Shown here piece after piece: positions 62,885 through 62,980 of a stretch of DNA of 64,000 bases (position 1 is the first letter of the stretch; every line of letters starts with the position of its first letter). The DNA lies in assembly GCF_003334255.1 (NCBI RefSeq), contig NZ_QOWU01000012.1, one strand, 5' to 3'. The notes below the pieces were generated by a model that saw nothing but the letters and a program-made list of their open reading frames with translations, was not told where the DNA came from and did no database searches. The DNA is from Escherichia coli. Its GTDB lineage: Bacteria > Pseudomonadota > Gammaproteobacteria > Enterobacterales > Enterobacteriaceae. The position numbers and the translations under genes were made by a program.

Positions 62885-62980
62885 ATAAAAAAATAGAGTC
62901 TGTCGACATCCGCCAGACTCTATAGTACACACAGCAGTGCATCCGCGTCTTAAGTCCGGCATTGTCTCCTCTGCGCCGGT
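62885..62980 (-). ncRNA. mcaS: Small RNA McaS (IsrA)
   Basis: Minus-strand sequence ACCGGCGCAGAGGAGACAAUGCCGGACUUAAGACGCGGAUGCACUGCUG... ending in hairpin agagucuggcggaugucgacagacucu plus U7; location between abgR and smrA; matches my recollection of McaS. Confidence 0.8.

Follow-up and report, generated by a model that had tools for sequence, protein, structure and literature searches.

McaS of Escherichia coli K-12 (IsrA or IS061; RF00115, b4426) is a small RNA (sRNA) of the CRP regulon, which activates flhDC, represses csgD, and promotes PGA synthesis with pgaA/pga as its target (PMC3634460). It carries four GGA motifs, two of which are functional, and binds CsrA (PMC10729762). Association with Hfq and other proteins has been described and expression is documented in K-12 (PMC4824073). 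In the genome of MG1655 (NC_000913.3), RefSeq places mcaS at 1405658–1405751 on the minus strand, between abgR, which ends at 1405649, and smrA.

Convergent transcription units meeting at a palindrome that can fold on either strand have been described as bidirectional terminators (SEnd-seq; the ynaJ-uspE type), and in the RNAP-collision model for convergent genes the hairpin serves as a pause site (bioRxiv 10.1101/2022.10.23.513370). Rho-dependent 3' ends are located just past stable stem-loops that lack a U-tract and are followed by sequence with more C than G (Dar and Sorek 2018; PMC6061677). Terminators less than about 27–30 nt from a stop codon are repressed by the ribosome, nearly completely at a distance of a few nucleotides and variably at 17–18 nt (PMC4824070).

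Here, we analyzed a palindrome next to the abgR stop codon in a 64,000-nucleotide stretch of E. coli DNA (the window). The feature is the mcaS gene together with the McaS terminator, an already known and ordinary element. Taken together, the data make it very likely that the hairpin is the Rho-independent terminator of McaS, that selection acts on it in the McaS sense, and that abgR transcription is not intrinsically stopped there.

The mcaS gene and its promoter region

A cmscan search assigned positions 62885–62980 on the minus strand to RF00115 (McaS/IsrA) with a score of 116.6 bits against a gathering score of 42 (E = 6.8e-22). The alignment covers model positions 1–96 of 96, and RF00115 was the sole Rfam family matched between positions 55000 and 64000. 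The gene as annotated in K-12 (94 nt) corresponds to 62887–62980. The coding sequence of abgR, a LysR-family regulator of 302 residues, occupies 61970–62878 on the plus strand (TAA at 62876–62878), as given by the list of open reading frames and by the RefSeq annotation of E. coli G1/2 and K-12; positions 62700–63250 are 100% identical to E. coli G1/2. The gene order of the locus is abgA (minus), abgR (plus), mcaS (minus), smrA (plus), and dgcM (minus). Both the open reading frames and the RefSeq annotation of the identical and K-12 loci place mcaS between abgR and smrA (ydaL), convergent with abgR.

The window McaS shares with its K-12 counterpart the abgR/smrA locus, the strand, the length, the three-hairpin architecture, the four GGA motifs, the U7 tail, and an upstream CRP-like box. 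The two genes differ at two bases. RNA position 27 is U in K-12 and C in the window, and the base 5' of the terminator stem is G in K-12 and A in the window. The latter change replaces a closing G·U pair with A-U, so that the palindrome of the window is perfectly symmetric. The two substitutions imply no functional difference. The minimum free energy (MFE) fold of the RNA reproduces the Rfam consensus structure of three stem-loops, the last of which is the terminator with its poly-U tail. The GGA motifs start at RNA positions 12, 24, 37, and 70 and would serve in CsrA binding. The sequence-only reading had recognized 62885–62980 as the known sRNA McaS, and the Rfam match, the K-12 annotation, and the covariation of the terminator helix described below bear this out. 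An open reading frame for 42 residues on the minus strand (62834–62962) overlaps McaS; we do not consider it coding, since its start lies within the sRNA and it crosses the terminator into sequence antisense to abgR.

McaS-like sequence is present in 5278–5387 of 5426 complete E. coli genomes. The curated K-12 record annotates mcaS, whereas the PGAP-annotated RefSeq E. coli genomes inspected carry no mcaS feature despite an unambiguous Rfam match.

A putative sigma-70 promoter of McaS lies at 62987–63016 on the minus strand. It consists of a −35 element TTGGCA (63011–63016), an 18-nt spacer, and a −10 element TATAAC (62987–62992), from which 6 nt lead to the +1 A at 62980. Across genera, the gTTATAAc block is retained. 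Our promoter scan did not report this promoter, because it demands T at position 6 of the −10 element. Upstream, a CRP-like box, cGTGA-N6-TCACt, occupies 63025–63040 on the minus strand, with its center at about −52.5 from the Rfam 5' end. The GTGA and TCAC half-sites of this putative site are conserved in most genera. We infer both the promoter and the CRP box from the sequence.

The terminator hairpin of McaS

The intrinsic-terminator hairpin of McaS (62893–62923, minus strand) was identified from the MFE and centroid folds, the inverted repeat, and covariation. Its outer stem, AUAGAGUCUG/CAGACUCUAU, comprises 10 bp between 62914–62923 and 62893–62902. Inside the outer stem are a 2-bp CG/CG step (10+2 bp in total), a GAUGU loop, and two 1-nt bulges. 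The hairpin is followed by a U7 tract (62887–62893 on the minus strand; A7 on the plus strand) and then AU, which would form the Hfq-binding 3' tail. The arms agagtctg (62895–62902) and cagactct (62914–62921) with a T7 run on the minus strand had been read as the McaS terminator, and all of these elements are indeed in place.

In the allele of the window, the hairpin folds with −15.0 kcal/mol on either strand. In the McaS sense, U7 follows the stem directly, as expected of an intrinsic terminator, and the U-tract score is 5.01. The abgR-sense stem of the same stability lacks a U-tract: the tail on the plus strand, AGTACACA (also as AGUACACA), has one U in 8 nt and a score of 1.19. A perfect stem of at least 9 bp combined with at least six T in 8 nt was found at two loci in the 64-kb window, the McaS hairpin and positions 1523–1546, and dinucleotide-preserving shuffles (n = 30) yielded no site under the same stem and T conditions. 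The second locus, on the minus strand (AAGCCACGGATATATCCGTGGCTTTTTAT), is presumably the intrinsic terminator of a minus-strand gene. A separate terminator scan returned no site at McaS because it allows loops of 3–8 nt, and this result is therefore not evidence of absence.

The McaS terminator shares with those of other Hfq-binding sRNAs, such as SgrS and RyhB, a GC-containing stem-loop and a run of at least 6–7 U behind it, an arrangement that is reportedly needed both for termination and for Hfq binding (Otaka et al. 2011; PMC4509938). In contrast to the SgrS/RyhB type, McaS has a bulged loop of unusual length, its outer arms lying 11 nt apart, and this loop contains an invariant heptamer, GAUGUCG (62905–62911, minus strand; alignment columns within 71–80). 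The heptamer is identical in all 27 McaS homologues compared. Across several genera, it stays invariant while the surrounding stem covaries. The fourth GGA of E. coli overlaps the heptamer (RNA 70–72, corresponding to 62909–62911). This loop GGA is not conserved, being replaced by CUGAUGUC, CCGAUGUC, and CAGAUGUC in other homologues, and CsrA binding is thus no obvious explanation of the invariance. Functional terminator loops have lately been reported in other sRNAs (PMC11979758).

Covariation and folding on the two strands were analyzed with a MAFFT alignment of the 27 McaS homologues, which come from several enterobacterial genera. The terminator helix is 92.9% paired over 12 pairs, with compensatory double changes in 6 of the 12, and shuffled and slid-register controls fall far below this level. 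The excess over the controls confirms a selected RNA structure. Helix 1 is 39% paired in the MAFFT alignment, which mis-registers it, and helices 1 and 2 are thereby poorly tested.

The junction of mcaS with abgR

The two genes meet tail to tail. Counted from the abgR stop codon (last base 62878), a 6-nt spacer, AACTGC (62879–62884), precedes the Rfam 3' end of McaS, which is the 7th base (62885). The 9th base (62887) is the end of the U-tract on this side and the McaS 3' end annotated in K-12, and the stem starts at the 15th base (62893), after a spacer of 14 nt. The sequence-only reading had the hairpin begin 7 bp after the abgR stop. The distance of 7 applies to the Rfam 3' end and not to the stem, so that the wording is correct only when the whole tail is counted as part of the terminator. 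Its statement that the terminator abuts the stop codon of a gene on the opposite strand agrees with the coordinates and the convergent order. Past the hairpin, the abgR-sense sequence (62923–62980, plus strand) is antisense to the body of McaS, is rich in C relative to G, and has no U-tract. The C/G ratio on the plus strand is 1.57–1.75 in 78-nt windows starting at 62880–62900, which places it at or above the 95th percentile of the 64-kb window.

A search for AbgR among representative genomes gave 26 full-length orthologous loci, none of them from Escherichia, in Enterobacter, Lelliottia, Leclercia, Citrobacter, Franconibacter, Silvania, Pluralibacter, and Klebsiella; the diversity of E. coli was drawn from the 5426 complete genomes. 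McaS matches above the gathering score (51–80 bits), convergent with abgR and directly after it, were found in 25 of the 26 loci. In the 24 loci with an intact abgR, the gap between the abgR stop and the McaS 3' end ranges from −4 to +14 nt. Across genera, 3–24 nt (median, 19) separate the stop from the beginning of the stem. The abgR TAA lies inside the McaS tail in five loci (L005, L006, L008, L009, and L023), which belong to Lelliottia, Leclercia, an Enterobacter MAG, and Franconibacter. The overlap there is at most 4 nt and the stem begins 3–4 nt past the stop, so that the final AA of TAA also codes for a portion of the U-tract. The abutment of mcaS to abgR is an old, conserved gene arrangement. 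The AbgR search also returned a 203-bp scaffold labeled 'Corynebacterium lipophiloflavum' (NZ_GG667266.1, L029), which matches AbgR residues 166–232 with 100% identity to E. coli and is most likely E. coli contamination of the Corynebacterium assembly.

The two genes also occur apart. In E. coli CH4793 (L002), a deletion of the abg operon has left 196 nt of abgR as a pseudogene remnant, and McaS is kept (112.8 bits) with its hairpin and U7. About 1100 E. coli genomes fall in the identity band of this locus. At positions 1318–1677 of L002, all that is left of abgABT-abgR are short remnants of abgT and abgR, both pseudogenes, beside ogt, with an intact McaS directly downstream. In Leclercia adecarboxylata NCTC13032 (L027, 3001–3918), an in-frame stop interrupts abgR after 136 codons while homology continues beyond it. 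This abgR appears disrupted, and McaS is kept with 59.6 bits. In Klebsiella pneumoniae ATCC 13883 (L026, 3909–4011), 101 nt separate abgR from a downstream smrA of the same orientation. Searches of this spacer, including one for McaS with a permissive E-value, detected neither the sRNA nor anything resembling a terminator. It follows that abgR needs no dedicated terminator before a co-directional smrA, and that either Klebsiella lost McaS or the other lineage acquired it.

E. coli itself has two McaS alleles. The type found in K-12 and the window is present in about 4050 of the 5426 genomes, and the ATCC 11775 type in at least 1055 genomes at an identity of at least 99%. The second allele (L002 1685–1780, L003 1686–1781) differs mainly in stem-loop 1, where CCGGCG...UGCCGG is changed to CCGGUC...GGCCGG with another loop. 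Its terminator stem contains a U·G pair, a natural CAGGCUCU variant, which leaves the McaS fold intact and weakens the abgR-sense stem (−14.7 kcal/mol in the McaS sense versus −9.4 kcal/mol in the abgR sense). In strains with this allele, similarity to the window ends about 106 bp upstream of the McaS start (window position ~63086 onward). In place of smrA, they carry an AraC-family regulator and an HlyD-family secretion protein (L002/L003 1851–3386), and smrA matches elsewhere in the genome. This flank indicates an insertion of an island or a rearrangement beside the mcaS promoter.

The strand served by the hairpin and the fate of abgR transcripts

A G·U pair in one transcript corresponds to an A·C mismatch in the opposite one, and the use of wobble pairs therefore reveals which strand is under selection. 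The 27 homologues have 0–4 G·U pairs each, and A·C mismatches arise on the abgR side in 26 of them. The mean energy of the hairpin is −17.5 kcal/mol in the McaS sense versus −8.9 kcal/mol in the abgR sense, with some abgR-sense stems reaching only −2.6 to −6 kcal/mol. Stability is higher in the McaS sense in 26 of the 27 and in the abgR sense in none; since the homologues are phylogenetically related, this count and its nominal Wilcoxon p-value overstate the independent evidence, although the direction is uniform. The allele of the window is the single symmetric case, having no G·U pair, and K-12 is nearly so. After the stem, 6–7 U follow in the McaS sense in all 27 homologues, and 0–2 U in 8 nt in the abgR sense. 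No U-tract was found on the abgR side in any of the 27, where the downstream sequence is the complement of an invariant single-stranded region of McaS (CUGCUGUGUGUACU). These comparisons argue that selection acts on the McaS-sense RNA, and that the hairpin is maintained for McaS and not for abgR.

The sequence-only reading had suggested that the palindrome may also act as the 3' end structure of abgR. As a conserved or selected function, this suggestion is unsupported: the U-tract is missing in 27 of 27 homologues, A·C mismatches disrupt the stem in 26, the stem lies 3–24 nt from the stop codon, and the two genes occur separately. For the E. coli allele of the window, a role at the abgR 3' end may nevertheless exist, given the perfect palindrome, the stem-loop without U, and the excess of C over G downstream.

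Published maps of transcript ends were searched for the locus. The Term-seq tables of Adams et al. 2021 contain no entry for mcaS, abgR, isrA, smrA, ydaL, ydaM, abgA, abgT, ogt, or dgcM, and no 3' end within MG1655 1,405,500–1,405,999. The TERMITe supplements contain no entry for the mcaS/abgR locus. A literature search for McaS together with abgR, or with 'bidirectional terminator', found nothing relevant.

In the explanation that we favor, mcaS would be transcribed from +1 at 62980 on the minus strand into an Hfq- and CsrA-binding, CRP-activated sRNA of about 95 nt. Its RNA polymerase would halt in or at the end of the U-tract (62885–62887), 7–9 nt short of the abgR stop, and the stem-loop with the U-tail would provide a stable, Hfq-binding 3' end. 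An intrinsic stop of abgR transcription at the hairpin is most likely not to occur, because there is no U-tract and the stem starts 14 nt past the stop, within the reach of the terminating ribosome. We infer that the abgR polymerase would mostly pass the hairpin and continue into untranslated RNA, rich in C over G and antisense to mcaS, until Rho, or a collision with polymerases that started at the mcaS promoter, ends transcription downstream. In the allele of the window, the palindrome may incidentally constitute an exonuclease-resistant 3' stem-loop of the abgR mRNA.

This last element overlaps with an alternative that we regard as possible but somewhat doubtful, namely that the relation of the palindrome to abgR is one of incidental protection only. 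Rho would end abgR transcription downstream, and the palindrome would block exonucleases and thereby set the steady-state 3' end of abgR, as a by-product of the McaS terminator with a lineage-specific effect on abgR stability. If so, the idea of an abgR 3' end at the palindrome would be half right. On the abgR strand, the stable stem-loop without a U-tract and the C/G ratio of 1.57–1.75 downstream would fit the Rho-type architecture of Dar and Sorek, although the stem is preceded by an A7 tract, which is atypical of that class (PMC6061677). The K-12/window allele, carried by about 4050 of the 5426 genomes, keeps a perfect Watson-Crick core of 9 bp. In contrast, the second E. coli allele is mismatched on the abgR side (−9.4 versus −14.7 kcal/mol), and the abgR-sense stems of other genera are weaker still.

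It is very unlikely that the palindrome is a shared terminator ending both McaS and abgR, whether as a two-way intrinsic terminator or as a hairpin pause driven by collision. The locus resembles the bidirectional terminators in that convergent units meet at a palindrome which, in the allele of the window, folds stably both ways. In addition, the interval from the abgR stop to smrA holds no other strong structure, the abutment is conserved in 25 of 26 loci, and the collision model requires a hairpin pause on both strands and not a U-tract. However, McaS has its own canonical intrinsic terminator, and the stability on the opposite strand is not conserved. The equal stability of both senses is absent in 26 of 27 homologues, where the abgR-sense stem is much weaker, and a two-strand function is thus not under selection. 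The lack of an abgR-side U-tract and the position of the stem, where ribosomes repress hairpin folding, speak against a two-way terminator, as do the retention of the McaS hairpin where abgR is deleted and the Klebsiella abgR without any terminator before smrA. In the collision model, termination is more efficient for highly expressed convergent pairs, and the Term-seq tables of Adams et al. hold no curated 3' ends of abgR or mcaS. A chance palindrome, i.e., a fortuitous inverted repeat with a T-run in the abgR–smrA spacer or a mis-annotation, is refuted: RefSeq/PGAP has no gene here in non-K-12 genomes, but the Rfam score is far above the gathering score, no shuffle yields such a terminator, the stem covaries in a compensatory manner across genera, and McaS has been characterized experimentally.

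The tail-to-tail junction, with at most 24 nt in the 24 loci with intact abgR from at least seven genera, is compatible with some coupling between abgR and mcaS. Regulatory cross-talk between the two genes seems quite improbable to us. If it did exist, abgR read-through, being antisense to the whole of McaS and extending over the McaS promoter, could tune McaS by transcriptional interference, RNAP collision, or acting as a cis-antisense sponge, and McaS could likewise affect abgR. The GAUGUCG heptamer and its exact complement in the hairpin of the abgR 3' UTR would then be a nucleation site for a kissing loop.

McaS is a characterized regulator of the switch between motility and biofilm formation, and its terminator is of the textbook sRNA type, so that the finding carries little weight beyond correct annotation. 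There are three by-products. The first is that PGAP omits mcaS in non-K-12 E. coli genomes. The second is the strand-asymmetry test of G·U pairs against A·C mismatches, which can be used on any claimed bidirectional terminator. The third is the occurrence of McaS, abutting abgR, in Enterobacter, Lelliottia, Leclercia, Citrobacter, Franconibacter, Silvania, and Pluralibacter.
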